Position numbers and translations under genes: made by a program. Under the pieces are notes generated by a model. That model was given only the letters and a program-made list of their open reading frames with translations, ran no database searches and had not been told where the DNA came from. From Thermomicrobiales bacterium (GTDB lineage Bacteria; Chloroflexota; Chloroflexia; Thermomicrobiales; CFX8), in the NCBI GenBank assembly GCA_037045155.1, contig JBAOIG010000003.1, positions 5,818 through 69,817 on the forward strand: 64,000 bases of DNA, given 5' to 3'. Shown here in pieces: positions 1-24,714 of this stretch (within the stretch, counting starts at the first letter, position 1; the number at the start of each line of letters is the position of its first letter).

Positions 1-628
1 CAACGTGGCGAGCACCGGCGCGAGCCGCCCGCCGCGAGGCCACGAAGACGAGGGAGGGGCCGAGGGGCGGAAGAAAGTCACGACCCCAGCATATAGCCGA
101 GCTGTCGCGCCGCGCCACCCGCGCCGCGCGATGCCATCGGTCCGCGTCGAGGCCCACTCGGGCCCTCGGGCCCGACGACTGAAAACGGCTTCAGAACAGT
201 GAATTGAGGAGGTCTGGGTTGGCCTTCAGCGTTTGGCGACCACGTCGTCGCGCCGCGCCGATTCTCCTTCCCCCAGCGAAGGGACGTCGCGCGATTGCCT
301 AACTTTCGGTGGGCGCAGTTCGAGGGACGCGGTGCGGCCGCGCTACTTCGCGGGCAGCGGCGTAGCCCGGCGGCGGCCACTCAGCGGTGTCCAGTCGATC
401 TGTGTTCCAGCGTGCCTCGCCGAGCAGGCGGTCTTCGACGAGTTGCCCGCCGTTGAAGATCGACGGGCTCCAACCCGCGAAGGCCCGATCCCAACGCACG
501 CTCCAGAGGATCGACGAACTCCAAGCGAAGGCCCTCCCCCGACGACTACGTTGAGAGAAGCGATTGCCGCTTCCTATTTGCACCTACCGCGGGTGCGGTC
601 TTCCATCTTGCAGTTGCCCGACTGGCAC

Positions 629-1478
629 TCAGAACCCTTGGAGCACATTCGGCCGCGCTCCAGGCCCTTGGGCTTCGAGCCGCCGGACGTTGGCGACGAA
701 CTCGCGTCGCTCGAGCTGCTCGATGACGAACTGGTTCGGGGGGGTGGCCATTCGGCAGACGCCCCCTTCCAAGCACACGTCGAACTTGCCGGGGCACTTT
801 CGCTTCGCGCTGCAAGTCCGACACACGCCGCCGCTGCACAGGCCCGAGCCGCACTCCCAGGGTTCTTTGCACGATGCACCCGCGGCGAGCGAGTGGTAGG
901 TCGCCGTTCCCCGCAGCACCCCTTCGTAGCAGCCGGGCACGGAGTAGACCATCTGCGGCGAGATGTGGAGCGTGAGCTCGCCGGCTTCGAACTTCGCGTT
1001 CCGCCGCATGTGAGTCCTCGTGCTCCTCGCCGGGCCTCTTCGCGTCGGCGCCGGTGAACAGGCACGTGAGGCGTTTGACCGATACGGCGGCCGGCTGCGG
1101 GGCGTTCGTCCTCGAGGCCGGCTTGGTCGGCGCGCTGCCCTTCTCGGTGCGGACCTCGGGGCCAGCGCACGCGGTCGCCGCGGCCGCGAGGGCCTCGCCG
1201 CACGCCGTCGTAGTGAAGTTCCACCGCCCGTTCGCGGCCTTCCACGCGGCATCATCGTAGTGTTCAAAGTCGGTGACGAGCTTGAAATCGTCGCCGCACT
1301 TTTCCTTGGTTCTCGCCAAGCTCGCACGCAGCGTCTTGTCGAACTCATCCCGCGCAGCCGATTGCTCAGCGGTGAGCGACGCCTGACTGTGCGAGGGCGT
1401 CGCGCAAAGCACGAGTCCTCCGAGGCACGCAGCTGCGAGCACCGTCCGACGCACCACCGAACCCCTGCGATCTGCCAT
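629..1478 (-). pseudogene. secreted Cys-rich hypothetical protein read in two frames (signal-peptide part from 1478, Cys-rich part 1009 to 629)
   Basis: ATG at 1478 gives MADRRGSVVRRTVLAAACLGGLVLCATPSHS, a signal peptide. That frame then decays into Arg-rich nonsense with no stop until 546. The adjacent frame from ATG 1009 (GAGGA 6 nt upstream) gives a plausible Cys-rich tail (CKEPWECGSGLCSGGVCRTCSAKRKCPGKFDVCLEGGVC) ending at 629. This is either one frameshifted gene or two genes. Confidence 0.35.
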
Positions 1479-1735
1479 GGTCACTTGCCCTCCGGGACCC
1501 CGCTCGACTCGACTGACTTTGGACGGGCCGCCATCCGCGCGATTCAAGCCGGTGAATTCCGAGACCCGCACCCGTTTGCGCAAGCGAGGCGGCCCCCCCT
1601 CGAACGAACGAGCAGGAGACGAGACTATCGTCGAGTGAGAGCGGGCGCGCGCCCAATGACCTGGCGGAGCGAGCACGGGCCCGTTTCGACCCGAGGCGAT
1701 TACAGGACCACTTTGCGCACCTCGTCCGTGACTGG

Positions 1736-2347
1736 TCACAGGCCAGGGCGCGAAGCGTCACGGTCACCCGTCCGGTCCCCGCCGAAGAGCGTTCGCTCGT
1801 AGACGCCATTGGGACCGATGACCCCCAGCGCGAGAGCTCCGACGACGCCGTCGCGCTCCACGGTGTCCTGGGGGAGCGTCAACGTCTCGGGGCCACGAAG
1901 GCCTTCCCAGATGGCGAGCGTGACGTGCGGCATGAAGCGCTCGCCGTTGCCTGTCGTCACCGTCACACCGCGCACAAAGGGGAGCGACAGGGCTCGCTCT
2001 TCCGCCTCGCGAAGGGCCTTGGTGCACGGCACGATGAGATACGCCATCGTGGCGGGCGGTGCGCCGTCGGGCGCGTTGTCAGGGGCGTTGTAGGGTCGGT
2101 CGTAGCGAAGAAACGCCAGCGCGCGGAACGACATGAGCATCGCCTTCGGGAGCGACGCAACGGCTTCGCGCCAGAGTGCTTCTGCCGCGCCGGCGCCGTT
2201 CGTCTCGACATGCAGCAACGTCACGTGCGGGACGCGGCCGTCGCCGAGCACGACGCGCGCCTTTTGGCCGCGCGCGAGCGACTCGGAGAGCGCGACGCAG
2301 CGCGCCATCGACTCAGGGTCGGGCAAGTAAACGAGGCCGAGTCGCAT
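1736..2347 (-). CDS. 2H phosphoesterase superfamily protein (LigT / cyclic phosphodiesterase-like)
   Basis: Intact 203-aa ORF with two H-x-T-x motifs (PHVTLLH and PHVTLAI) at the spacing typical of the 2H fold. Confidence 0.55.
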   Translation of the reverse strand: MRLGLVYLPDPESMARCVALSESLARGQKARVVLGDGRVPHVTLLHVETNGAGAAEALWREAVASLPKAMLMSFRALAFLRYDRPYNAPDNAPDGAPPATMAYLIVPCTKALREAEERALSLPFVRGVTVTTGNGERFMPHVTLAIWEGLRGPETLTLPQDTVERDGVVGALALGVIGPNGVYERTLFGGDRTGDRDASRPGL

Positions 2348-2387
2348 TGTGGCTCAGTCTAGCCGCGAGCGCGGCGCAGTCTCCGCC

Positions 2388-3428
2388 CTACGGACACACC
2401 GCCGGCTCCGGCGCCGCCACGAGCGAGTCCAAGTCGGCCGCCGTGGTGGCCGCGTCGAAGCCAAACGACCCAATGAGGCTCGTGCCGGCGTCGAACTCGA
2501 GCCGCATGAGGGTCTTGTCGGTGCCGTTGATGGCGAAGATCGTGTCGAGCGTGCTCTCGACGCCGATGCGCGTGATGCGCGGCGTCGTCGTGATGGCGAG
2601 CGTCGCCGCGGCGTCCGCGAGGTTCATCGTGTAGATGGCGCTGCTGCCGGTCGTGGGCGTCGTTTGCATCACGTCCATCATGTAGAGCGTGCCGCCGCGG
2701 AAGGAGCAGCTGTCGCCGTCGTCTTGCAACGTCTGGTGCGAGCCGAGACGCGACGCGGCGCTGGCATCGAAGTCGACCTTCACCAAGCTGCCGGTGACGG
2801 TGGTGGCGCTGTCGACCCAGTCGCCTGACGCGTAGAACTCCCCGGTGATGGGGTTTGCCGCGAAACACTCCATGCGCTTCAGGAGGCCCGCGTCTCCGCC
2901 GCCGGTGGGCGCTTTCGTCACGCGCGGACCGACGGTGATGGCGCCGGTGCAGCAATCCACCGTCGCGAGCTTGGGCGCCGTGAGCGCTTCGACGACGGCG
3001 AAGAGACCTCCGCGGACGGGGTTCCACGCGAGGCGAACGTCGGTGTGTCCCGTCGCGCCGACGAGCGTGAGCGCTGCCGTCGACGGGTTCACGCGATAGA
3101 GGCTTCCCTGAAAGTGCGCGTAGAGCGTCGGCGCCGTCGCGGCGTCCGACGCATCGGACGCGTCAGCGGCGCCCGCATCGTTGGTGGCGTCGCCCGCCGC
3201 GTCGAGCGTGTTGGCGTCAGCGCCGCTGTCTGCGCTCGCTGCGTCGGGAGGCCCGCCGCTATCGGCGACGGCCGTGTCGGGCGCACCGGCCTCGGCTGTC
3301 GGCTGGTTCAGATCCAAGCTCGCATCGAGTGAGCCACCCGTCGAAGGGGAGGGGTCGTCATCGCCGCAGGCGCTGTAGGCAAGAGCCGAGCTGGCAAAGA
3401 CGAGGGCGAGCGGGAGGGCGCGATTCAT
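2388..3428 (-). CDS. lipoprotein, unknown function
   Basis: ATG at 3428 gives MNRALPLALVFASSALAYSACGDD (signal peptide plus lipobox Cys). A D/A/S-rich linker follows, then a globular region. The ORF is intact. Confidence 0.6.
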   Translation of the reverse strand: MNRALPLALVFASSALAYSACGDDDPSPSTGGSLDASLDLNQPTAEAGAPDTAVADSGGPPDAASADSGADANTLDAAGDATNDAGAADASDASDAATAPTLYAHFQGSLYRVNPSTAALTLVGATGHTDVRLAWNPVRGGLFAVVEALTAPKLATVDCCTGAITVGPRVTKAPTGGGDAGLLKRMECFAANPITGEFYASGDWVDSATTVTGSLVKVDFDASAASRLGSHQTLQDDGDSCSFRGGTLYMMDVMQTTPTTGSSAIYTMNLADAAATLAITTTPRITRIGVESTLDTIFAINGTDKTLMRLEFDAGTSLIGSFGFDAATTAADLDSLVAAPEPAVCP

Positions 3429-3635
3429 GGCCTTCGTGTAGCGCACTTTGCGCCGCGAATGCACCTCGCGACGACGGGTTTTTCGCACGCCGGCGGGGGG
3501 AGTCACCGCCCTCCGGCGCTCCTGTGGTCACGAGCCCTTCGCCTCGATAACATGGCTCGTCGTGCCCAAACTCCGCCCGCGCGCCCACCTCTTCCTGCCG
3601 CCGGTCTCCGTGGGCCGCGTTTTGGGCAGGTCGCG

Positions 3636-5236
3636 ATGAGCGCCCCCGTGCGTGAGGGCGAGGTCCTCGCCGGCAAGTACCGCGTCGAGCGCGTGCTCGG
3701 CGCGGGCGGCATGGGCGTCGTCGTCGCGGCGACCCACCTCGCAGCTCGACCAGCGCGTCGCGCTCAAGTTCCTGCTCGCCGAGGCGCTGGCAGAACGCCG
3801 GAGACGCGTCGAGCGCTTCCTGCGCGAGGCGCGCGCCGCCGCGCAGCATCAAGAGCGAGCACGTCGCGCGCGTCCTCGACGTCGGCGACGCTCGACGACG
3901 GGCGCGCCGTACATGGTGATGGAGTACCTCGAGGGCGCACGACCTCGCGGACGTCGCTCGAGCGCGCGCGGCGCGCTGCCCGTCGAGCGACGCCGTCGAC
4001 TACGTGCTGCAGGCGCTGCGAGGCGCGTCGCCGAGGCGCACGCGCGCGGGCATCGTGCACCGCGATCTCAAGCCGGCGAACCTCTTCCTCGCGCGCCGCG
4101 CCGACGGCGCGCCGCTGCGTCAAGGTGCTCGACTTCGGCATCTCGAAGATCGCTCGGCCAGCGTCGAGCCGAGCGCCGACTCACGCAGACGACGCTCGAT
4201 CGCTCGGCTCGCCGCACTACATGTCGCCCGAGCAGATGCGCTCGCTCGCAGGACGTCGACGCGCGCACCGACATCTGGGCGCTCGGGACGATCCTCTACG
4301 AGCTCCTCACGGCGCGCCGTCGCCTTCCCCGCGCGACTCGATGCCGCGAGATCGTGCCGCGCCATCCTCCACGATCCGATCCCGAGCCGCTACGGCATGG
4401 CCGCGCCGCGATGTGCCCGAGGCCCTCGAGCGCGCGGTGCACCCAGGCGCCTCGAGAAGGACACCGAAGGACGCGCTTCGCCAATCCGTCGCGCGAGCTC
4501 GCGCACGCGCTCGCCCCGTTCGTCGCCCGACGCCGAGGGGCACGCCTCTGCCGACTCGGTCGCGCGCCTCTCCGGCACCGCCGCTCACGCGGCCACCTTT
4601 CGTCCGCCCGCCAGCAGCGCCGATGGGATGGAGAGCGCCGCGTGTCGGTGCGGCGACGCTGCTCTCTTCGTCAGAGGCTTCCTCAGAGGCTTCGTCCGCG
4701 CCTTCGTCGGGGCCTTACTCGTCGCCGTCGTCGACGGAGCCGTCGGCGGAGGCTCGCGCCGGGCGCCGGCAAGGCGACGGCATGGTCCGCTGGCCACGCG
4801 TACGGGCCCGAAGACGGCGGTGGCCCAGTCGATGGACGCGCGCGCCGAGCGCCCGTCGTCGCATCGGCGCCGCGCTCTCGGGCCGTTGATCGCCGTCCTC
4901 GGGGTCCTCGGCGGCGGCGCCCTCGCGTTCACGCTCGCGCGGAGCACGCCGCCCACGACGGCGGGCGCGCCGGTTTCCCGGCGGAGAACGGGCCGGCGTC
5001 GGCTTCGCCGGAGGCCCCGGTGCCGTCCCCGTCCTTGCCGCACCACCCGCGTCGGCGTCGGCGTCCGTCGTGACGACCCCTTCGCCGAGCGCCGCCGTCG
5101 CGCTTTCTTCTGCGTCGCCGTCGCCCTCTTCGTCTACGCCGGCCCCCGTGCGCGTCGGCACCGCGGCACCGCCTGCACGAACAGAAACGCGAACGGAACC
5201 CAAGAAGCCGCCGGCACCACCGGCTGCCTCGAGTGA
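3636..5236 (+). pseudogene. Ser/Thr protein kinase (Hanks type), heavily frameshifted
   Basis: Kinase motifs appear in the correct order but are scattered over all three forward frames: [91 protein letters not shown]-like segment ([18 protein letters not shown]) lies downstream. Confidence 0.7.
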
Positions 5237-5265
5237 CAAAGGTCGCCTCTTTATGGAGCTGGAAA

Positions 5266-6353
5266 ATGAGCACGCGCATCGGGTCTTCGCGTTTCGTCAC
5301 CGCCGCGCCGCGCGGGTGCTTGGTCGTTGCCCTCGCCGCGGCCACACTTCTCGGCGCAGCGCCCTCTGAGGCGCAACGTCGACGTCGCCCTCGGCCCGTC
5401 GCACCGACCGCACCCGTGCCCGTCGTCGCTCCGGTCGCGCCAGTGGCGCCCCAGCGGCCGAGCCTTGGCCGAATCCCTCAGCGGCGATGCGCGCGCCGAC
5501 TACGACTCGGGGCGCGAGCTGTTCCGCGACGGCGATTTCGCCCGGTGCCCTCGTGAAGTTCGAGAGCGCGCACAAGAAGTCCGCCGACGCGCGCCTCCTC
5601 TGGAACATGGCTGCTTGTGAGAAGAACCTGCGCCACTACGCCAAGGTGCTCGAGCTCGTGCGCCGGTACCTCGCCGAGGGCGGCGACAAGCTCGACGACA
5701 AGGATCGCGCGGAGGCCACCGACCTCCTTCGCACCGTCGAGCCGCTCACCACCAAGCTTCGCGTCAACGTCAACGTGCCCGGGGCCGAGGTCGCCATTGA
5801 CGACGTCGTCGTCGGCACCGTCGCCCATGACTCGACGGAGCCCGTGATCGTCGACATCGGCATGCGTCGCGTGCGCGTTCGCAAAGACGACCACAAGGAG
5901 TTCACGACGCAGATGCCCGTGGGCGGGAGCGCGGAGGTCGCCCTCGTCGCCTCGCTCGTGCCGATCGTGCACGAAGGAAAGTTGTCGGTCACGGCCAAGG
6001 ACGGGCAATCGATCTACGTCGACGGAAAACTCGTCGGCACGGGCCGCTGGGACGGCGTCGTCAAGAGCGGCGGTCACCAGATTCGCGTCATCGCTCCGGG
6101 CATGAGGCCGTTTCAGTCAGGAGAAATCGTGGTGCAAGACGAGCAGGCCCGGACCGTTCCGGTGACCCTCGAGAAGGAGCCGGAAGCGCCCTCGAAGGTT
6201 CCCGCCTGGGTTTGGATCGGCGGCGGCGTGCTCCTCGCGGCCGGTGCCACCGTGGGCGCCGTCGTCATCTTTCGCCCCGAGGATCGCACCGAGCCGGCTC
6301 CCGTCGGAAACCTCGCGCCGGGCAACGTGCAGGCGTCGGTTCGCTTCCGCTAG
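5266..6353 (+). pseudogene. PEGA-domain secreted/membrane protein, two frame switches near the 5' end
   Basis: ATG 5266 (GGAG upstream) gives the signal peptide MSTRIGSSRFVTAAPRGCLVVALAAATLLGAAPSEAQ. The reading continues in a second frame (LAESLSGDARADYDSGRELFRDGDFA) and then in the 5487..6353 frame, which has TPR-like and PEGA-like segments and a C-terminal TM helix (WVWIGGGVLLAAGATVGAVVIF). Confidence 0.55.
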
Positions 6354-6381
6354 GCCGGCGTCAAGCCGACCGACGGGCCCG

Positions 6382-7004
6382 TCAGCTCGAGCTCGCGAGC
6401 CGCGGTCGGAGAATCTCGCGGAGGTAGCTCGCCGACGACGGCGCGTGGCACGACGCGCATGCGCCGTCGAAGCCGACGTCGTCGCAGCTCCGGCAGACCG
6501 TGAGCGCCTCGTAGGGCGTGGCGTCGACGAGGTAGTCGACGAGGAAGAGCGAAAGGACGCGCGCGGCGAGGCGCATCTTGGGCTGATCGACGGGCAGCCA
6601 CACGAGCTCCCCGGCATGACGCGCTGGCTCGAGATGACCGTCGCGCATGGCGAGCGTCACTGCGTTCCATTCGCCCTCCGAGAGCTCAACCAACGCGTCG
6701 ACGACGACGCGCCGGGTCGACGCGAGGAGCTCGGCGATGGAGCGCTCGCTCATGGGCGCGGCCTCGTGGCGTGATTCGCTCGCGCCGTCGTCCGCCGCCT
6801 CGGCTTCGGCGCTGACGTTCGCAAGGGCGCGATACGGACCGCATAGCCACTCCGCCAAGTCGCGCTCCAGCCGTCGCGGGCCCCGTCGAGGAACGCAAGC
6901 CCCGTCTCGCGACAGGCCTCGGCAAACGTCGAGGGGGTTTCTTCCGCGCGGTCCAACGGCTCCACCTCGATGGATTCTGCAAAGTTGGTGCTCACGCCTG
7001 CGGG
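6382..7004 (-). pseudogene. hypothetical protein with one frame switch near 6860
   Basis: Protein-like sequence runs from the 6750..7139 frame (STNFAESIEVEPLDRAEETPSTFAEACRETGLAFLDGARDGW) into the 6382..6858 frame (AEWLCGPYRALANV...MSERSIAELLASTRRVVVDALVELSEGEW). The GTG start at 7004 is a guess. Confidence 0.3.
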
Positions 7005-7341
7005 CGTCGTTTGGAACGGCCCGGGACGCCCTCGGTGTCCATTTCCGCTCAGGGTGCCGCTCTCGAGGCTCTCGTCGGCGACCGATGGACCCGCGGAGAT
7101 CCGCCGGGCCGTTGCGCGAAAATTACACTCGCTGGGCACCGTCGACAGGTGCCACGTCGGGATCCGTCGGGCCGACTTTTCTGTCAGACCCTTTCGCGGT
7201 CTGAGAGCCCTCAGCGGTGAGAGGCCCTTCAGAAGGTTCCGACGGCGGCGGCGCCGGCGCCCATCGGAACGAACGCGATCGACGGAACGTTCGCTTGCCG
7301 AGCCGGCCTGTTCTTGGGTGTCGCGCTCGCCGGGCCGACGC

Positions 7342-8169
7342 TCACGGTGCGCGGCGGCAGCCAGAGGCGACGAGCAAGGCGCCGAAGGTCTGCATGGCGC
7401 CGCTCGTGATGAGCGCGCCGCGCGTGGCCGTCTCTTCGATGCACGGATCGACAGGAATCAACTCGGAGCCGGGCGGCGGGGTGCAGTTGGGGCGCTTCGC
7501 AAAAGCCATGAACGGCCCCGCGACGGGGATCAGAAGCTCGCGATCGGCGCTGCGCTTGGAGGCGGCGCCGAAATACGCCGTCGGCGCGTAGGCCAGGAGC
7601 AAGACCGTCGCGCCGCCGATGAGGAGGCCCGTGGGCCTCGACACCTCCGAAGCGGCGACGCCGTCGGCGGAAGGGCGCGTCCTTACCGGCTCGATGTCCT
7701 GCCGTGGCGCGCTCTCGACCTCGATGCGATCGTGCGACAGGAGCTCGAGGGTGGCGTCGGGCCCCGTCGTCACGCCGCGCACCGAATCGCCGGAGCGCGA
7801 CATCGCCGCCGTGCCGGGTCGAAAGACGACGCGCCTGCCGTCGGTGTGCCGCACGGCGATGACTTGGCCCGCCGCGTCTTGTTCGATCACGGCGCCGAAC
7901 TCGACGGGCTCGCTCGCGACGAGGGTGATCTCGCCGCGATCAACCCGCGCGCCCTCCGGCAGGGGGATTCGCTTGGTCGAGCGAATGATCGCGAGCGGCC
8001 GAAGCGCGTCGCGGCGGGCCTCGGCCGGCGACACCGTGTGCGTCGCGACCACTTGGCCGCCACAAGCGGGGAGGCCGCCCATCGTCGCCACCAAGAGCGC
8101 CGTGCCAAGAAGACGCCCGACGCCGTGCCCACGAGGAGATGCACCACGGAACCACGGAAGGCACTCCAT
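7342..8169 (-). CDS. lipoprotein, unknown function
   Basis: Intact 275-aa ORF. The N-terminus GRLLGTALLVATMGGLPACGG has a lipobox. The exact start is uncertain. Confidence 0.5.
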   Translation of the reverse strand: MECLPWFRGASPRGHGVGRLLGTALLVATMGGLPACGGQVVATHTVSPAEARRDALRPLAIIRSTKRIPLPEGARVDRGEITLVASEPVEFGAVIEQDAAGQVIAVRHTDGRRVVFRPGTAAMSRSGDSVRGVTTGPDATLELLSHDRIEVESAPRQDIEPVRTRPSADGVAASEVSRPTGLLIGGATVLLLAYAPTAYFGAASKRSADRELLIPVAGPFMAFAKRPNCTPPPGSELIPVDPCIEETATRGALITSGAMQTFGALLVASGCRRAP

Positions 8170-8322
8170 ACCCTTGCGAACGGCCGCATGCGCGAGCCCT
8201 TAAAGGGCTCGGCCATCTTCAGCGTTGTTGTCAGCGCCGAGCCGCCCTCGGCTACGCTCGTGCGTCCCGGTGCGCGCCGATTTCGAGAGCGCGCCGGCGC
8301 CCACAACCGGGCCAGAGGTCTC

Positions 8323-9797
8323 ATGCGTCACGTCACGGTCTTGCTCTCGGCGGTCTTCGGCCTCGTGACCACCGTGGCGGCTTGCGGCTCCGAGTCGGCG
8401 GCGACCTTCGGCTCTGCTCGAGGCCGAATCATCGGTGGGCAGCTCGACGCGACGCACCTGGCGGTCGTCGCTGTGATGCTCGACGCTGGCGTCTGCACCG
8501 GCACCATCGTTCGCACCGACCCGGTCACCGGCGTCGGGTGGGTGCTGACGGCCGCCCACTGCGTCGACGGAAAGAAGGCCGCGTACGTACGCATGGTGGA
8601 CGACTACACCCTGGGCCAGAACGAGCCCCAGCCGTACCTGCGCGCGACGGACTTTGTCGTCTCGGAGACCGTGAGGCACCCCGGTTACGTCGCCCTCACG
8701 GGCACGACGCCGCCGCAGAATGACTTCGCCGTTTTGCGCATCCTCGGCGTCGACGCCTCGACGCCGGTGATTCCGATCTTGCCCGCGAACTTGGACGATC
8801 TGGCGATCGGCAAGTCCGTCGTCGAGGTTGGGTACGGCAAGATCAGCGGCGTCGTCGACGCTGGCGACAACTCCAAGCGCCGGAGCGTCACCACGACGCG
8901 TCACCAAGGTGTCGGCGACGGAGCTCGAAACCAGCTACGCCATCGGCAGCACGTGCCAGGGCGACAGCGGCGGCCCGTCGCTCTACGTCTCCGGCGGCAA
9001 GGAGTACGTCGCCGGCGTCACGTCGTATTCGGACTCGGAGTGCAAGGTGTACGCGGTCGCGGAGCGCGTGTCGTCGGCGCTCGCGTGGATCGACGGCGAG
9101 GTGAACAAGGCGCCGGCGCTGAGCGGCTGCAATCTGGTGCCGCGAGGTCTCCACGGTCGGCTCGCACGCGTGTCACGCGGCCTACGAGCGCTGCAACAGC
9201 GACGCCGCATGCGCCGCGCTCCGCGACTGTCGTAGCCACGTGCAGCACGCGGCGGCCTGCTTCGCGACGTGTGAGTCGCGAGCACCCGCTCGCCGTCGGG
9301 GCCGCTCCTCGCGTGGGCCAACTGCGCGTGCCTCGGCGAGTGCAAGAGCAAGTGCGGCAGCGTGTCGGCGTGCGGCAATGTCCCCAAGTGCAGCGTCGAC
9401 GTCGGTGTCACCGCGTGCGGCAAGTGCCAGGAGGCGAGCTGCTGCAGCGAGGTGACGACGGCGGCGCACGAGCCCGTGGGCAACCGGTGCCTCGCCACCA
9501 AGGGGACGTTCGCCGGGTGCGCGTCCAACGCGGCCTACAAGGCGGTGGAGGCGTGTCGCGCCTCGAGGTGCGCCGCCGACTGCGGCCTCGCGCCGCCGTC
9601 GCCGTCCGCGCCTCCGCTCGCCGAGGCGCCACCGGCAGGCGACGCGGGCTCGGCGCCTCCCGCGCCCGCGGCGGCACCGCCGGCCGAGGACTCAGGCTGC
9701 GCGGTCGTCGGGAGGGTCGTCCTCCGCCCCGACGTCGTCGGCCTCGTGGGTGGCCATGGCGCTCCTCGCGTGGGCGCGGCGCCGCCGCGTCCCCTGA
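8323..9797 (+). pseudogene. trypsin-like S1 serine protease with Cys-rich C-terminal region and MYXO-CTERM tail, frameshifted
   Basis: ATG 8323 gives the lipoprotein signal MRHVTVLLSAVFGLVTTVAACGS, then IIGG...LTAAHC (catalytic His). A second frame holds GDSGGP (catalytic Ser). Further frames hold Cys-rich segments (CHAAYERCNSDAACAALRDC; CGKCQEASCCSEV). The last frame reads GCAVVGGSSSAPTSSASWVAMALLAWARRRRVP then stop (9795-9797), which is the MYXO-CTERM pattern. Confidence 0.6.
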
Positions 9798-9841
9798 GCG
9801 AAGCCGTGTGCTGACCCGCCGCGCCGCGCTATCATCCAGCG

Positions 9842-11230
9842 ATGCGCCGCACTTCCTTTCTCGGTCTCAGCGTCCATGGTCGTCGCCGTCGGCACTTACG
9901 CCGCGTGCGTCGACGACGATCCGTCCAACCCGGGTTTCCAATTCGACGGCGGCGGTCTCGACGCCGCTTCGCCTGACGGCACGACGCCGGAGACCGGCGT
10001 GCCGCCCGTCGGCATCGACGCCGGTGGCGCCGCCGACGCGGGCCCCGCCCCCGTGACCGTGCTGCTGACGCGAGCCGGTGCGCCCGCGAGCGGCGTGACG
10101 GTGGTCTTCCACGACGCGAGCGGCGCCGTGCATCGATACACGCACCACCGACGCCAGCGGCCAAGCCGCGATGGTCGTGCCCGCCGGCTCGCAAGTCACC
10201 GCGGTCTTCGGCACGGTCACCAACCCGGAGCTCGTCACCATCGCTGGCGTCGAGCCAGGCGACGTGCTCCGCGCCGCTGAGCCGCTCGCGGCGGCCCAGC
10301 CGCCATTCCCCTCGATTGACATCGAATCGGCACCGGCGTCGCCGCCCGCGGGGACCGCCTATTACCTGGCGCGCGTGGGCTCCTGCTCGAACAGCGTCAA
10401 CGTCGTCGACGGCGGGCAGGCCGGCCCCATCAACGTGACCCTCGATCCTGGTTGCACGAACGGGTCCACCGTGTCGGTGGTCGTGGAGGCGAAGAGCGCC
10501 GGCTCCGCGACGCTGGGCTTCGCCTCGCTGGCGAGCGCGTCAATCGCCGACGCCGGTGTCGTGACGCCGATGCCCGTCGACGTTGGTGGCACGTGGGCCG
10601 ACGCCGGAGCGCAGGCGCTGCAAGTCGTAGGCGCCGATCCAATCGCCTCCGGCAATGCGGTCTACTCCGAGATCATGAACAGCGGAGCCATCTCTTCGTT
10701 CACGAACGTCGTCGGCAACGCAGACGGCGGGCCGCTGCAGCTCTCCTTCGAGGTGCATCCAGGCGTCGCGGCGAACGGTCAATATGAAGTTAATTATCGG
10801 GAGGACCTCTCAAGCGGCGTCGCCTTTCGCGCCATCGCCGGGCGCAGCGCCAGCGGGGAAATCCGAGCATCGACGTCGCGCAGATGATGCCGGCGCTAAC
10901 GGCGGCGGACGTCGACGCCGGTGTCCCGGCTCGTCCCGCCGTCACTTGGGCTTCGGCACCACCGTCACCGCCGACGGCCTCTTCGTCCGCGTGCGCTGGT
11001 GGGAGTCGCCGACCGACGGCGGAGCGTACGTCTCGGGGCGCTGGACCATGGTCGTCCCCCCGCAGACCCAGGTAATCCAAGCCCCGCAATTGCCCGCCGC
11101 GCTGGCCGCCTACGCGCCGAGCGCCACATCGTCCGTTTACCAGACGCCGACGCTCGTGTTCGTCGACTCGAGCCTCTTGCCCGGCTACCGCGAGCTCCGG
11201 CAGGTCTCTGCCTCCGTCGGGCCGTCGCAA
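9842..11230 (+). pseudogene. lipoprotein, unknown function, at least 4 frame switches
   Basis: MRRTSFLGLS then VVAVGTYAACVDDD (lipobox) in the next frame. Protein-like segments continue through the 9876, 10171, 10884 and 10784 frames. There is no stop before the FkbH-like gene. Confidence 0.35.
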
Positions 11231-11233
11231 AAC

Positions 11234-12357
11234 ATGTACGAGGATCGACCGGGCGGTGGCCTCGTCCGCCTGATCGCAGTCGATTGCGACAACACACTCT
11301 GGGGTGGGGTTGTTGGCGAGGTCGGGCTGGGACGGAATCGAGCTCGGCGAGGATGGCCCCGGGCGCGCCTACCAGCTCTTCCAGCAGCAGCTGAAGCGGC
11401 TCAAGGAGCGGGGCATCCTGCTTGCGGTGGTCAGCCGCAACGAGGAGGCGGATGTCCTGGAGGTGTTCGAGCGCCACCCCGGCATGGTGCTCCGGCCGGC
11501 CGACATCGCGACCTGGAGCGTCAACTGGCGCCACAAGTCGGAGAACCTGCGCTCGCTCGCCGAGGAGATGAACCTGGGGCTGGACAGCTTTGTGTTTCTG
11601 GACGATGACCCGGCGGTGCCGGGCGGAAGTGGCAGCGCGCGCGCCGGAGGTCCACGTCGTCCCCTTGCCGAGCCGCGCGACGGGATACGCCGAGGCGCTC
11701 GCGCGGCTCTGGCTATTCGATGGCGCCCAGGCGACGGATGTGGACGCGGCGCGGACGCAAATGATGCAGGAGGAAGGACGACGCAAGCGCGAATCGACGG
11801 CAGCCGCCAGCATCGACGAGTTCCTCGCCGGGCTGGACCTGCGGGTCGAGATGCGACCGCCGGAGGACACTGAGTGGGCGCGTGTCGCTCAACTCACCCA
11901 GCGCACCAATCAGTTCAACCTGTCGTTGAAGCGTCGCACCGTCGAGGAAGTCCGGGCATTGGCCGGCGAGGAGGCGGTTCTTGTCTTGAAGGCGGCCGAC
12001 CGGTTCGGAGATTACGGCCTCGTCGGGGTGGTATTCGTCCGGCCGCCGGACGCGGCCCGCTCGGCCGAAATTGACACGCTGCTGATGAGCTGTCGGGCAC
12101 TCGGCCGGGGCGTCGAGGATGCGTTCCTCGCCGGCATGGCGGCGCTAGCCGCCGGCCAGGGAGCAACAACCCTGGTCGCGCCATACGTCGAAGGAAAGCG
12201 CAACGCGATGGTGCTGGACTACCTGCGACGCAGTGGATTCACCGAGCAGGGCTCCGGAGCATGGACGCTCTCGATCGTCGATCCGCCCTCACTGCCGGCC
12301 CACGTCCAGTTCGATAGCCCCTTGCTCGTCACGACCGGCGCTCCCGGGGGCAACTGA
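11234..12357 (+). pseudogene. FkbH-like HAD-IIIC family protein, two net +1 frame switches
   Basis: MYEDRPGGGLVRLIAVDCDNTLWGG (HAD motif I) is followed by WDGIELGEDGPGRAYQLFQQQLKRLKERGILLAVVSRNEE...FVFLDDDPAV in the next frame, with an extra base at 11327. RAEVAARAPEVHVVPLP...TNQFNL...MSCRALGRGVE follows in the third frame, with an extra base at 11619. The gene ends at the stop at 12355-12357. Confidence 0.6.
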
Positions 12358-12370
12358 AAGGATCGTCTTG

Positions 12371-13339
12371 ATGGAGACAGTGTCTTGCCTGCTCTGCGGA
12401 TACCCAGGGAGCACGGTGCGCGTGACTGGGTGGGATCGTATGTGCAATGTGCCGGGGGTGTACACGCTGGTCGAATGCGACCGATGCGGCTTCCTCTACC
12501 TGTCGCCGCGCCCCGATGCGGAGGAGATCAAGCGTCACTATCCGGAGGAGTACCCGTTCTACGCATCGTTCTTCGACCAATCCTCCTACATCAAGTCGAT
12601 CGGTGTCTATGAGCTGACCAAGCGCGCCCAGCAGGTGCTCGACGCGGTGAGTGGCGGGCATGACGTGCTCGATATCGGCTGTGCCGTCGGCGACTTCCTG
12701 TCGATGATGAGCTCGAAGGGCTGGAATGTGCGTGGGGTAGAACCCGACCCTGGCGCGGCTGCCTATGCCCGCAAGCGACACGGGATCGACGTGTTCAACG
12801 GCTATCTCGAAGAGGCTTCATTCGAACCCGAGTCATTCGACGCCGTGACAATGTGGGAGGTTCTTGAGCATACTCCCCAGCCCCTCGATACGCTGCGGCG
12901 CGCCTTCGATCTGCTCCGGCCCGGCGGCGCGATTGTCATGTCGGTGCCAAACCGGGACTCGCTCGAATCAAAGGTGTTTGGGACATACTGGATTGGCAAT
13001 GACTTCCCACGCCATTTCTCCGTGTTTTCGCCGAAGCACATGCGTGTGGCGCTGAGCTCGGCTGGATTCGTCGAGCCGCGAATCATCAGCCAGCGTGGCC
13101 GTCTGGGGGCGATGCATAACGAGATCGCCTGCGGGCTTGGCAGCATCGACCTCTGGCTACACGCTGGAGACCGCGATCGCGGCGCAAGGCGCATCGCAGA
13201 TCGCGTCCTGTTGCCGATTGTCACGAAGCCTGTGGGTGTCGTCCCCATCTTCATTGCGTCGTTGCCGATGTCGGTTGCGATCCGGAAGCTGAACCTCGGG
13301 TCGCAGATGATCGCCGTTGCCCACAAGCCAGCCGCCTGA
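12371..13339 (+). CDS. class I SAM-dependent methyltransferase with N-terminal Cys4 motif
   Basis: ATG 12371 with AAAGGA upstream. CLLCG...CDRCG zinc-ribbon-like N-terminus. The VLDIGCAVGDF motif (SAM binding) and the downstream PGGAIVMSVPN are typical of Methyltransf_11/23 proteins. Confidence 0.7.
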   Translation: METVSCLLCGYPGSTVRVTGWDRMCNVPGVYTLVECDRCGFLYLSPRPDAEEIKRHYPEEYPFYASFFDQSSYIKSIGVYELTKRAQQVLDAVSGGHDVLDIGCAVGDFLSMMSSKGWNVRGVEPDPGAAAYARKRHGIDVFNGYLEEASFEPESFDAVTMWEVLEHTPQPLDTLRRAFDLLRPGGAIVMSVPNRDSLESKVFGTYWIGNDFPRHFSVFSPKHMRVALSSAGFVEPRIISQRGRLGAMHNEIACGLGSIDLWLHAGDRDRGARRIADRVLLPIVTKPVGVVPIFIASLPMSVAIRKLNLGSQMIAVAHKPAA

Positions 13340-15904: not shown

Positions 15905-16228
15905 GCCTGTCATCCTTCACTCCGTTCAGGATGACAGAGAAATGGGAAGCTGCCGGCCTGCCATATTCACTGCGGTCGCCTACTCAGTGCAGCGACTAGC
16001 ATGATGCGTCCTGTATTGTGGTGCGACAGCCACCACCGCTCGTTGTCATTCCGAGCCGCAGCGAGGAATCTCCCCTGGCTGGATACAGTCGAACGCAGGG
16101 AGATCCTTCGGCTGCGCGGGCGCCATCGCCCAGGGGGCACCCGCGCAGAGGATGACAAAGGACAGGGAGGCTATCGACGTGACAGTTCATACTGGTTGAT
16201 GCACTCAGGATGACGAAGGAACGAGTCG
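15905..16228. repeat. two copies of a ~200-bp hairpin (MITE-like) repeat family
   Basis: Shares long near-identical stretches with 23.0-24.3 kb, for example GTGCGACAGCCACCACCGCTCGTTGTCATTCCGAGCCGCAGCGAGGAATCTCC ... GGAGATCCTTCGGCTGCGCGGGCGCC ... AGGATGACA. The arms GTCAT.C.GAGCC.CAGCGA.G.ATC and GATCCTTCGGCTGCG...AGGATGAC are inverted complements. Confidence 0.8.
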
Positions 16229-21979: not shown

Positions 21980-22043
21980 CCGCGAGCATCATCGCGGGCT
22001 CCGGCTGCCGGGCATGCCCGATCGGCGACCGCAGGGAGGATTC

Positions 22044-22976
22044 ATGGCATCTGTTGGTTCCACGACGCCGGAGATGGTCGAGTCCGCATTCTCACCGCAG
22101 CGGACCCGACGCCGGACGTTGCGCTCCGTCCTGAAGGCCGCCTGGAAGCTGCGCATGTCGGTCGCTGGGGGACTTGTCCTGTTGATCCTGATCGCCATCG
22201 CCATTGCGGCGCCGATTCTGACTCCGTACAGCCCGGAGGAGGGGCGCATCGCTAACCGGCTCCAGCCGCCGGTCTGGCAGGGTGGCTCATGGTCGCACCC
22301 GCTTGGGACCGATGGCATCGGCCGCGACTACGCTACCCGGCTGGCGTATGGGGCACGCGTTGCGCTGACGGTCGGGCTGCTTGCGACGCTGCTTTCTGGC
22401 GCGATCGGAATTGCGCTCGGTGTGCTGGCCGGCTTCTTCGGCGGCCGGATCGACGCTGTCATCTCGACGCTGGTGAATATCATGATGACGTTTCCGTTCA
22501 TCCTGCTGGCGTTAGCGGTGATCTCCGTCCTCGGAGCGAGCTTCCTGAATGTCGTGATTGTGCTGGGGGTCGGAGCCTGGCCGATCTATACCCGCGTGGT
22601 GAAGTTCGAGGTCGAGCGGATCAAGTCGCTGGACTATATCCAGGCCGGCCACGTGCTCGGAGCGAGCAACCTGCGGCTGATGACCCGCCACATCCTGCCG
22701 AACCTGGTCAACGCGATCATCGTCATCGGCACCGTCCAGGTCGCCCGGCTGATCATCTCCGAAGCGTTCCTCAGCTTCCTGGGTCTCGGCATTCAGCCGC
22801 CGACGCCGAGCTGGGGCTATATGCTCCAGGAATCGCAGGCATTCATGTTCTCCTGGAGCGACCTCTGGCTGCCGACCCTGCCGGGGCTGGCAATCTTCAT
22901 CACCGCGCTGTCGATCAACTTCGTCGGCGACGGACTGCGCGACGTGATGGATCCCCACCAGCGCGCCGCGCTGTAA
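22044..22976 (+). CDS. ABC transporter permease (DppC/OppC-like)
   Basis: ATG 22044 preceded by AGGGAGGA. Membrane protein with the conserved loop DYIQAGHVLGASNLRLMTRHILPN. Confidence 0.85.
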   Translation: MASVGSTTPEMVESAFSPQRTRRRTLRSVLKAAWKLRMSVAGGLVLLILIAIAIAAPILTPYSPEEGRIANRLQPPVWQGGSWSHPLGTDGIGRDYATRLAYGARVALTVGLLATLLSGAIGIALGVLAGFFGGRIDAVISTLVNIMMTFPFILLALAVISVLGASFLNVVIVLGVGAWPIYTRVVKFEVERIKSLDYIQAGHVLGASNLRLMTRHILPNLVNAIIVIGTVQVARLIISEAFLSFLGLGIQPPTPSWGYMLQESQAFMFSWSDLWLPTLPGLAIFITALSINFVGDGLRDVMDPHQRAAL

Positions 22977-23029
22977 TCTGTCGTGACGCCGCGGGAGTCC
23001 GACAGGGTACACGCGCGTTGGTCGCGCCC

Positions 23030-24310
23030 GACGAATGACGCTGATCACCGTACTGAGTACATCGACTAGCATGAAGTGTCCTGTACTGTGGTGCGACAGC
23101 CACCCCGGCCGTTTGTCATGCTGAGCCTCAGCGAAGCATCTCCTCATGCTGGATGCATTCAGACGCAGGAGAGATCCTTCGGCTGCGGCCTCAGGATGAC
23201 AAGGTGCGGGGAGGCTGCCAACCTGACACATCATGCTAGTCACTGTACTGAGTGGCCCGACCAGCGTGACGTGTCGGATTGTTGGTTGCGGCCGCCACCC
23301 CTCCCTCTGTCATCCGACGCCTAGAGGGCACCCGGCAGTGAAGGATCCGGTTCCCTGCGTTCGGTCGCAGCTGGCGGGGAGGAACGGATTCTTCGCTGCG
23401 GCTCAGAATGACAGGAGGCGGGGAACCGTCCAGAATGACAGGATCACTGCGGTCGACGACTCAGTGCACCGACTAGCGTGATGTGTCCTGTACTGTGGTG
23501 CGACAGCCACCCCGGCCGTTTGTCATGCTGAGCCTCAGCGAAGCATCTCCTCATGCTGGATGCATTCAGACGCAGGAGAGATCCTTCGGCTGCGGCCTCA
23601 GGATGACAAGGTGCGGGGAGGCTGCCAACCTGACACATCATGCTAGTCACTGTACTGAGTGGCCCGACCAGCGTGAAATGTCGGATTGTTGGTTGCGGCC
23701 GCCACCCCATCTCTCTGTCATCTTCTGCCCAGAGGGCGCCCGCGCAGCCGAAGGATCCGTTTCCCTGCGTCGTTCGCTGCCGCCGAGGAGGGACGGATGT
23801 TTCGCTCCGGGCGCCCTCTGGACGATACATGACAAGACACGGGACTGGCTGCCGACCTGACACATCACGCTGGTCGGAGCACTGAGTAGTCGACCAGCGT
23901 GATGCGTCCTGTACTGTGGTGCGACAGCCACCACCGCTCGTTGTCATTCCGAGCCGCAGCGAGGAATCTCCCCTGGCTGGATGCATTCAGACGCAGGAGA
24001 GATCCTTCGGCTGCGCGGGCGCCCTCTGGGCAGAGGATGACAAGGTGCGGGTAGGCTGCCAACCTGACACTTTATCCTAGTCGGAACACAGAGTCGTCGA
24101 CAGCAGTGATTCTGTCATTCTGAGCCGCAGCGAAGAATCCGTTCCTCCCCGTCGGCTGCGACCGAACGCAGGGGGCCGGATCCTTCACTCCGTTCAGGAT
24201 GACAGAGAAATGGGAGGCTGCCGGCCTGACATATTCACTGCGGTCGACTACTGAGAATGACGGGGGATGGCGCAGACTGCTGACTCCACATGTCATGCGG
24301 GCTCAGACAT
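23030..24310. repeat. cluster of at least 6 MITE-like hairpin repeat units, including a 407-bp tandem duplication
   Basis: ORFs at 23076 and 23483 share an identical 64-aa N-terminus, so the same DNA recurs at a 407-bp period. A third related copy lies at ~23880-24070, with inverted copies between and after. Each ~200-bp unit carries the GTCAT.C.GAGCC.CAGCGA.G.ATC / GATCCTTCGGCTGCG..AGGATGAC inverted arms. Confidence 0.85.
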
Positions 24311-24420
24311 TCGATATGTTGACACACAGGGGGTGTCGCTAACGCACACTTGATATACGTCACTATGGTCGTGACGAGCTGGAGTTGGGAGCATGGCCTG
24401 ATACGCCGGTGAATTGCCGG

Positions 24421-24714
24421 CTACCGCAATTTGTTGAAGAGTTGCTCGGCCTCGGTCTCGGTGAACGCGCGGTATGACTCGGTCCGGATATTCCCCGTGC
24501 CGGCGAGCTGCAGAAGTGACACCGATAGCGTTTCCTCATCCGGCGCTTCGACCACGGCCATCAGATCGTACGGGCCGGTCGTCCACCAGATCCCCTTGAA
24601 TATCGCCCCTGCTGGCTCGAACATTGCCTTTGCCTGCCGATATCGGGTGACGCTATCGGCAGCTGCCCTGACCCCCTGATCTGTCCAGTGCATGAGTATG
24701 ACGTAGGTAGGCAT
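24421..24714 (-). CDS. GYD domain protein
   Basis: ATG 24714 gives MPTYVILMHWTDQG...GPYDLMAVVEAPDEETL..., 97 aa, the typical GYD family pattern. Confidence 0.65.
   Translation of the reverse strand: MPTYVILMHWTDQGVRAAADSVTRYRQAKAMFEPAGAIFKGIWWTTGPYDLMAVVEAPDEETLSVSLLQLAGTGNIRTESYRAFTETEAEQLFNKLR

Follow-up and report, generated by a model that had tools for sequence, protein, structure and literature searches.

A 64-kb segment of a Thermomicrobiales contig that very probably opens with misjoined Myxococcales DNA

Introduction

Why should a contig assigned to the Thermomicrobiales open with some 11 kb of broken genes of Myxococcota type? The window, by which we mean the whole 64,000-nt stretch of DNA analysed here, comes from a public MAG named 'Thermomicrobiales bacterium' (locus tags V9F06_), in which it lies on a 1.43-Mb contig. 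A sequence-only reading of the window regarded its left part as foreign, and took it to be either an assembly or binning chimera or a recently acquired segment in decay. Comparison with related public genomes indicates that positions 1–11268 are very probably Myxococcales DNA misjoined to a Thermomicrobiales contig in a long-read metagenome assembly. A block wrongly stitched on in this way would be an artefact, and therefore not a case of gene transfer.

Composition and gene content of the left block

The drop in GC content that had been noticed by eye is real, the values falling from 0.70–0.73 over 1–11 kb to about 0.64–0.66 on the right, while the claim of an extreme third-position bias holds in direction only, GC3 being higher on the left by a modest margin (0.866 vs 0.826). 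Scored in 500-nt windows, the tetranucleotide signature is still left-like at start position 10751, and its log-likelihood ratio has reversed sign by 11001–11251. Between 12 and 64 kb, no other 2-kb window with a left-like tetranucleotide signature was found, and the k-mer profile disclosed no further foreign segment there. Reading frames were traced with a codon-usage Viterbi frame tracker and proteins were frame-repaired before the domain search; frame switches are confined to 1–12353, and the genes downstream are single frames. The left block and its genes are as follows.

1–11268, no strand: Myxococcales-derived block (probable), low-quality consensus, collinear with L011 and with the short-read contigs L095–L102
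1739–2347, minus: LigT-like ORF of 203 aa, deposited as MEI2616642.1 / V9F06_03230 under '[Thermomicrobiales bacterium]'
2388–3506, minus: lipoprotein with a lipobox and a D/A/S-rich linker, 0 indels against L095
3636–5269, plus: Hanks-type Ser/Thr kinase gene, shattered (Pfam Pkinase on the frame-repaired protein)
5266–6353, plus: gene for a PEGA-domain protein, 5 frameshifting indels lying near its 5′ part; a 266-aa fragment is MEI2616645.1
6382–8082, minus: a pair of hypothetical genes, homologous to L095 genes of 252 and 284 aa, with 3 and 1 frameshifting indels
8323–9797, plus: S1 protease of the Trypsin family; a Cys-rich region, a MYXO-CTERM-like tail and 10 frameshifting indels
9876–11268, plus: homologue of a Myxococcales 481-aa protein, 95% identical to P0001, 6 frameshifting indels

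The gene content noted earlier is confirmed by the Pfam searches of the frame-repaired proteins (Pkinase, 2.5e-29; PEGA, 1.5e-10; Trypsin, 1.9e-21), and the lipobox and D/A/S-rich linker of the proposed lipoprotein are visible in its translation. The homologue of the LigT-like ORF is IPG50_35015 of a Myxococcales MAG. In an intact homologue, the protease ends in '...DSGCAVVGR...WVAMALLAWARRRRRVP', in which the succession of cysteine, hydrophobic helix and arginine cluster can be made out; the MYXO-CTERM model TIGR03901 gives the intact L011 protease 17.1 bits (E=0.005) with a cut-off of 20, and the window copy is frameshifted. The 481-aa homologue breaks off 57 nt short of its stop codon, losing its last 18 codons, and a fragment of it (10171–10887) has been deposited as MEI2616650.1 / V9F06_03270.

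Two parental lineages

Both sides of the window can be traced to near-identical public assemblies, whose source names bear out the foreign, Myxococcota origin proposed for 1–11.27 kb as well as the Chloroflexota (Thermomicrobiales) origin proposed for the remainder. Nine independent Myxococcales assemblies are collinear with 1–11268; all the genes are intact there, and all the alignments end at 11268. The 3.34-Mb contig L011 (GCA_964269505.1) matches window positions 703–11268 at 93.2% identity, with 480 mismatches and 166 gap openings (blastn), and the contigs L095–L102 match the left block at 94.5–96.3%. The intact homologues carry the name 'Myxococcales bacterium' in their sources. Past the breakpoint, the Myxococcales parent continues the 481-aa gene to '...GGGLVPILPADGTLKLTAVTEPID*', followed by a 409-aa gene and cNMP/PRK genes; a 724-aa gene is part of this continuation. 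Among the homologues found for the Myxococcales genes expected beyond the joint, no member came from the V9F06_ MAG.

To the right, 13 Thermomicrobiales assemblies match 11271–64000 at 98.8–99.7% identity, starting exactly at 11271. The joint and the features beyond it are listed below.

11268–11271: chimeric breakpoint (probable), with left-parent homology up to 11268 and right-parent homology from 11271 on
11271–12357, plus: FkbH (HAD-IIIC) C-terminal domain of a Thermomicrobiales 960-aa protein, from residue ~599
12371–13339, plus: class I SAM-dependent methyltransferase, with which the intact genes on the right begin, identical in sequence in at least 24 contigs
13396–64000, no strand: Thermomicrobiales genome proper, nearly every gene one uninterrupted frame

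The FkbH stretch is recognized by TIGR01686 (1e-82, 278 bits, cut-off 146.65), and a 197-aa fragment of it is deposited as MEI2616652.1 / V9F06_03280. In the intact 960-aa protein, an acetyltransferase-like N-terminal region precedes the FkbH domain, which occupies residues ~598–925 in all the references. What lies upstream of the breakpoint in the Thermomicrobiales parent is the part of this ORF for the N-terminal 598 residues and, before it, genes for an epimerase, a luciferase-like protein, an MTase and PDT. This synteny around the 960-aa ORF is kept in another species (L015), and a scan of genome contigs with the 960-aa protein gave, among the matches listed, distant homologues and one related Thermomicrobiales species. 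Genes for a MqnA-like protein, P5C dehydrogenase, proline dehydrogenase, D-aminoacylase, an Opp transporter, LeuRS, MtnA and hydantoinases are among those of the segment 13396–64000. The native upstream flank of the Thermomicrobiales segment sits on a second contig of the same MAG: a different, 638-kb contig carries PDT (MEI2616619), an FkbH fragment (MEI2616624) and the identical methyltransferase (MEI2616625).

The joint at 11268–11271

Alignments reach 11268 from the left and 11271 from the right, and none goes further; with both parents in public data, the position of the breakpoint is known to within 3 nt. The joint had been put at ~11233; the alignments locate it 37 nt further to the right. 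The residues MYEDRPGGGLV, earlier read as the start of the FkbH-like protein, turn out to be part of the C-terminal region of the Myxococcales-type 481-aa protein, and the ATG at 11234, which had been supposed to give the FkbH gene a start codon and N-terminus of its own, belongs to that same protein. The observation that the switch occurs within one continuous open frame stands, since ORF 10784–11608 crosses the joint; the fused ORF exists because the two reading frames happen to be in phase. Both parental genes are interrupted mid-ORF.

Two nucleotides, 'cc', lie between the two homology ends and match neither parent, and no adaptor, repeat or spacer is present at 11268–11271. The earlier statement that the joint lacks a spacer, tRNA, integrase or meaningful repeat also holds on a wider search: the sole tRNA in the window is at 30.1 kb, no integrase domain was found in 1–12.4 kb, and the repeats around the joint are short chance ones. 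Restriction and ligation at GATC, a motif that both parents have at this place, was considered as a source of microhomology and set aside; it is not demonstrable because 2–3 extra bases separate the last Myxococcales-matching base from the GATC that they precede in the window. A boundary at ~12.35 kb, where the FkbH gene ends, was likewise rejected, as the alignments show the FkbH stretch to be Thermomicrobiales sequence with two local insertions. These are single-base insertions at 11329 and 11619, found in no reference, and by them the frame errors reach past the joint, up to 350 nt into the right block.

None of 22 related assemblies carries the chimeric junction. A pattern search for it in metagenome_contigs (241 million records) returned 0 matches, with the 11-nt left anchor matched exactly; the native junction gave 3 matches in the same search, only three, so that the negative result is weak taken alone.

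Consensus error or gene decay

The many frame breaks of 1–11.3 kb, together with the GC and k-mer contrast to the rest of the window, might suggest an acquired foreign segment in which genuine mutations are pseudogenizing genes of no use to the host. The block shares with the pseudogene-rich regions of reductive evolution a high density of frame disruptions. Relaxed selection on lineage-specific substitutions is not seen: the substitutions private to the window in the left block comprise 49 synonymous and 17 nonsynonymous changes, with 51 of 66 at codon position 3, and those private to the intact strain L011 are 51 and 18, with 52 of 69 at that position. Purifying selection is thus undiminished, matching the intact strain, and dN/dS is normal.

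The indels tell a different story from the substitutions. In 5.8 kb, 26 are private to the window (20 of them of 1 nt) vs 5 for L011, and three short-read references have 0 among themselves. The ratio of indels to substitutions, 26:80 in the window vs 5:74 in the natural sister lineage, is thereby ~5-fold higher. Across the left block, insertions outnumber deletions by 134 to 32, and all are of 6 nt or less, mostly of a single nucleotide; natural gene decay in bacteria is deletion-biased, and a deletion-biased spectrum with larger deletions is not what is found here. No large deletion occurs in the left block, in which gene order and content are fully preserved. Density is also patchy, jumping from 0 to ~4% between adjacent genes: the lipoprotein gene has no indel, and the neighbouring kinase gene, compared over 1.57 kb with the intact 521-aa gene of L095, has 62 (58 of them frameshifting) alongside 120 mismatches. 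A model of homopolymer errors alone was rejected, just 41 of the 122 single-base indels adjoining an identical base and 81 not. A classic homopolymer signature does not dominate, which counts somewhat against long-read error, and the spectrum does not point to one platform.

Taken together, the undiminished selection and the insertion-biased, patchy indels contradict the earlier suggestion of a decaying acquired segment, which we consider highly improbable. The left-block indels are best read, from these sequence comparisons, as low-coverage long-read consensus error and not as decay.

Misassembly or recent transfer

A real and very recent inter-phylum transfer would be compatible with such errors. 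A rare Thermomicrobiales strain would have taken up 11 kb or more of chromosomal DNA from a Myxococcales donor, illegitimate recombination having placed it within the 960-aa FkbH-fusion gene; the joint would then be real and the frameshifts would be low-coverage errors. Two observations favour this possibility. The organisms share a wastewater-type habitat, as the sample names indicate, and the low-quality sequence runs for ~350 nt into the Thermomicrobiales side (insertions 11329 and 11619), so that at least one physical or virtual molecule must have held both sequences. The carry-over is accounted for equally well by one chimeric read, and in long-read libraries chimeric single reads are, a priori, far commoner than a real joint between phyla. 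Against transfer, moreover, two ORFs are cut at arbitrary points with no integrase, tRNA, repeats or clear microhomology, neither the 13 conspecific assemblies nor the metagenome collection contains the junction, and the native, uninterrupted flank is present on another contig of the MAG. With a genomic island, the block has in common that it is a compositionally foreign set of genes, of another phylum's type, inside a host contig. Unlike an island, it comes without an integrase, a tRNA target, flanking repeats or mobility genes, is joined inside two ORFs, occurs in no conspecific genome, and contains genes under the ongoing purifying selection of the donor lineage. To the left, the block reaches the edge of the window. 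We hold transfer to be very unlikely, though less so than decay.

Binning error alone, with two correctly assembled contigs of different organisms placed in one bin, would explain why proteins of Myxococcales type appear in the deposited MAG under a Thermomicrobiales label, but this half of the earlier chimera proposal is refuted by the continuity of the window sequence and is not the issue here, because both parts are on one contig, in one continuous sequence with one ORF through the joint, and MEI2616642–2616685 all map to the same 1,426,631-bp contig.

The other half of that proposal, an assembly chimera, is strongly supported. Both parents and the exact breakpoint are identified, the errors have been profiled, the junction was not met elsewhere, and the MAG contains the flank twice. 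The joint is without biological significance.

How the misjoin may have arisen

Under misassembly, DNA of a low-abundance Myxococcales organism from the same wastewater-type community would have been joined at 11268–11271 to a contig belonging to a Thermomicrobiales population that was abundant. The cause may have been a chimeric long read, in which two molecules were ligated or read as one, or a wrong path through the assembly graph. Very low coverage of the Myxococcales part, for which the step in consensus quality is an indirect proxy, would explain why its long-read indel errors were kept in the consensus, and the errors so kept would in turn give the genes their 'frameshifted, decaying' appearance. 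The deeply covered Thermomicrobiales part would have come out clean, bar two insertions that escaped correction within 350 nt of the joint, and its true upstream neighbour would have ended up on a separate contig of that MAG. The type of sequencing platform, like the low coverage and the choice between library and assembler as the origin of the chimera, is a matter that we infer.

The features of the joint resemble those of chimeric long reads, the ligation or in-silico chimeras of nanopore and PacBio libraries: the junction is clean and head-to-tail with 0–3 nt of filler, and error-rich sequence crosses it for a few hundred bases. The window joint differs in having no adaptor remnant. Nor does anything essential set the window apart from inter-genome chimeric metagenome contigs, which likewise show a compositional break exactly at the joint and a junction not reproduced in other assemblies; here both parents are public and the frames are in phase by chance. 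Such contigs, too, bring together unrelated genomes at an arbitrary point and swallow a low-coverage partner, a pattern that agrees with the account of activated-sludge metagenomes in PMC7881036, where low-coverage species are reported to be the most prone to chimeric contigs.

Consequences for public data

The case is one of data hygiene, in that a public MAG would hold at least 11 kb of Myxococcales DNA. At least four broken fragments have been deposited as Thermomicrobiales bacterium, namely MEI2616642.1, MEI2616645.1, MEI2616650.1 and the truncated FkbH MEI2616652.1. Entries of this kind can yield false calls of inter-phylum horizontal transfer, may lend false taxonomic ranges to families such as PEGA proteins, Hanks kinases and MYXO-CTERM proteases, and can also seed spurious 'pseudogene-rich' regions. 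The comparison used here offers a reusable test that needs no reads: where private dN/dS is normal and 1-nt, insertion-biased indels are in excess, consensus error is indicated and not decay.

The joint between two genomes

Very probably, the feature is an inter-genome assembly chimera, in which Myxococcales DNA of low coverage would have been misjoined onto a contig of Thermomicrobiales; indels left uncorrected from long reads would make the misjoined genes look like pseudogenes. Homology to the left-hand, Myxococcales parent extends up to 11268 and that to the right-hand, Thermomicrobiales parent begins at 11271, while the two bases in between ('cc') are unlike either; no adaptor, spacer or demonstrable microhomology is present at the joint. 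Both reading frames are in phase by chance, resulting in a fused ORF (10784-11608) that passes uninterrupted through the joint, as the sequence-only reading had described. It had also rightly reported the absence of a tRNA, integrase or inverted repeat there: neither a tRNA nor an integrase domain, nor any Rfam family or repeat of note, lies at the joint. The residues MYEDRPGGG, which it took for the start of FkbH, belong instead to the tail of the 481-aa Myxococcales protein cut by the joint, as comparison with the intact protein end reveals.

With 0-12 nt of slack allowed at the join, the chimeric junction pattern matched none of 241 million metagenome records; the native junction of Thermomicrobiales, sought with an identical right-hand anchor, was recovered from three contigs. 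A real horizontal gene transfer junction, carried by a very rare strain, is improbable.

GC content falls from 0.70-0.73 in windows over 1-11 kb to mostly 0.64-0.66 beyond. The tetranucleotide log-likelihood ratio (left versus right model) switches sign from the 500-nt window that starts at 10751 to the one at 11001, and by this measure none of the 2-kb windows from 12 to 64 kb is left-like. The contrast in GC3 noticed earlier is present, albeit smaller than implied (0.866 versus 0.826).

The Myxococcales parent

The frame-repaired protein at the joint is 95% identical to the 481-aa protein on L011, a 3.34-Mb NCBI contig, with remoter relatives in a Myxococcales bacterium and Labilithrix sp. 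The left block shares its gene order with L011, whose genes are all intact, and with L095-L102, eight contigs assembled from short reads of other samples; the alignments of all nine to the window stop at 11268, none continuing beyond. The intact 481-aa protein ends in '...SQNMYEDRPGGGLVPILPADGTLKLTAVTEPID', and the joint truncates its gene 57 nt short of the stop. In these Myxococcales genomes the gene is followed by a 409-aa gene and then a cNMP-binding/PRK gene, and for the Myxococcales genes expected beyond the joint there is no member from the MAG to which the window belongs. In a named Myxococcales MAG, the homologues carry consecutive accessions (MBK6697364 to MBK6697373).

Frame-repaired proteins bear out the Hanks kinase and PEGA content (Pkinase, 2.5e-29; PEGA, 1.5e-10), and one left-block protein carries a Trypsin domain (1.9e-21). 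The proposed D/A/S-linker lipoprotein is recognizable by its lipobox and D/A/S-rich linker. As for the protease tail assigned to MYXO-CTERM, a Cys, a hydrophobic helix and an Arg cluster end the intact homologue, with a sub-threshold MYXO-CTERM match.

The stretch 316-1776 of the left block contains a Cys-rich hypothetical gene, frameshifted in the window. L011 has it as a 294-aa gene, and L095, a short-read strain closer to the window, lacks it; the difference is natural variation in gene content among strains of the donor lineage.

The Thermomicrobiales parent

First intact gene of the right block
12371-13339, SAM-dependent methyltransferase

The identical methyltransferase protein occurs on at least 24 contigs from wastewater-type metagenomes and MAGs. 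An intact ORF of 960 aa (989 aa in one MAG) lies 14 bp upstream of it in all ten loci shown, as it does in another three Thermomicrobiales MAGs, and is preceded by epimerase, luciferase-like, methyltransferase, prephenate dehydratase, PPIase, LigT and RF-1 genes. The window aligns to these ten loci at 98.8-99.7% identity, and all ten blastn alignments begin at 11271. It enters the 960-aa protein at residue ~599 (reference '...RSRRRSPAKV/IAVDCDNTLW'), the FkbH domain spanning residues 598-925. Another Thermomicrobiales species (L015) keeps a full-length protein of this type (66% identity) and the gene order PDT, MTase, epimerase, 960-aa gene, MTase, MqnA.

In the conspecific locus L001, the intact fusion gene occupies 7105-9987, its last third being homologous to window 11271-12357. 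Its N-terminus is membrane/hexapeptide acetyltransferase-like, with weak WcaF/NeuD-type matches (residues ~143-254), followed by a faint acyl-carrier-like stretch (312-350). A fusion of this type also occurs in a Bryobacteraceae MAG (51% identity).

The deposited entries

Exact look-ups place the window on a 1,426,631-bp contig of a public MAG that is deposited as Thermomicrobiales bacterium, with locus tags V9F06_ and protein accessions MEI26166xx. Broken Myxococcales fragments stand under that name.

Deposited fragments
MEI2616642.1, window 1739-2347, Myxococcales fragment
MEI2616645.1, Myxococcales PEGA fragment
MEI2616650.1, window 10171-10887, Myxococcales fragment, exact match
MEI2616652.1, 197 aa, truncated FkbH stretch

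A second contig of this MAG (638,194 bp) encodes prephenate dehydratase MEI2616619.1, FkbH fragment MEI2616624.1 and the identical methyltransferase MEI2616625.1; at most 16 protein accessions separate MEI2616625 from MEI2616642. This contig holds the native upstream flank, stranded away from the window's contig, so that ~2 kb is duplicated within the MAG. MEI2616624.1 (P0118) is a 334-aa fragment of the native 960-aa gene with an out-of-frame start ('MAPGAPTS...') and differs from the window's FkbH copy at two residues, which implies that this contig end also has indel errors or represents a strain variant.

Frameshifts: error or decay

A six-frame codon-usage Viterbi path switches frame ~25-30 times within 1-12353, so the broken zone reaches past the originally placed joint into the FkbH-like stretch; from 12353 to 64000, nearly each gene forms one run. 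Against the references, the window has just two indels in the 960-aa gene, insertions of one base each at 11329 and 11619, which account for both FkbH frameshifts.

Differences in window 5425-11268 compared with L011 and three short-read references
Short-read references among themselves: 4-10 substitutions; 0 indel events
Private to L011 (natural variant): 74 substitutions (51 synonymous, 18 nonsynonymous; 52/69 at codon position 3); 5 indels, intergenic or 3 nt
Private to the window: 80 substitutions (49 synonymous, 17 nonsynonymous; 51/66 at codon position 3); 26 indels, 20 of them single-base

The window lineage is under the same purifying selection as the intact strain, which is incompatible with broken genes, and the indels are therefore consensus artefacts. 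Natural decay is deletion-biased, opposite to the excess of insertions over deletions in the whole left block (134:32). Contradicted by both selection and indel spectra, a decaying island is highly improbable; the continuity of the sequence excludes an error of binning alone. The indels are very patchily distributed (62, with 120 mismatches, over the 1.57 kb of the kinase gene; none in the adjoining 1.1-kb lipoprotein gene), a pattern that looks like near-raw long-read stretches alternating with partly polished ones.

Further into the right block, an OppC-like ABC permease gene (ORFs 22014-22976 and 22289-23038) has a single-base deletion at 22764 relative to L001; the ORF is 320 aa instead of 331 aa, its C-terminal part running on in another frame. 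The deletion may stem from one more error of the consensus or from one in L001 itself.

Intergenic repeats

The Thermomicrobiales part also contains an intergenic repeat family (15912-16099 and 22972-24430), comprising a 174-nt core present four times (63-77% identity), a 250-nt pair (97% identity, 407 nt apart) and 76-nt ends of 95% identity. The repeats, which have no match in Rfam, occupy a non-coding gap of 1.46 kb with a tetranucleotide signature like neither block (r = 0.53-0.70), and they are also present in L001.
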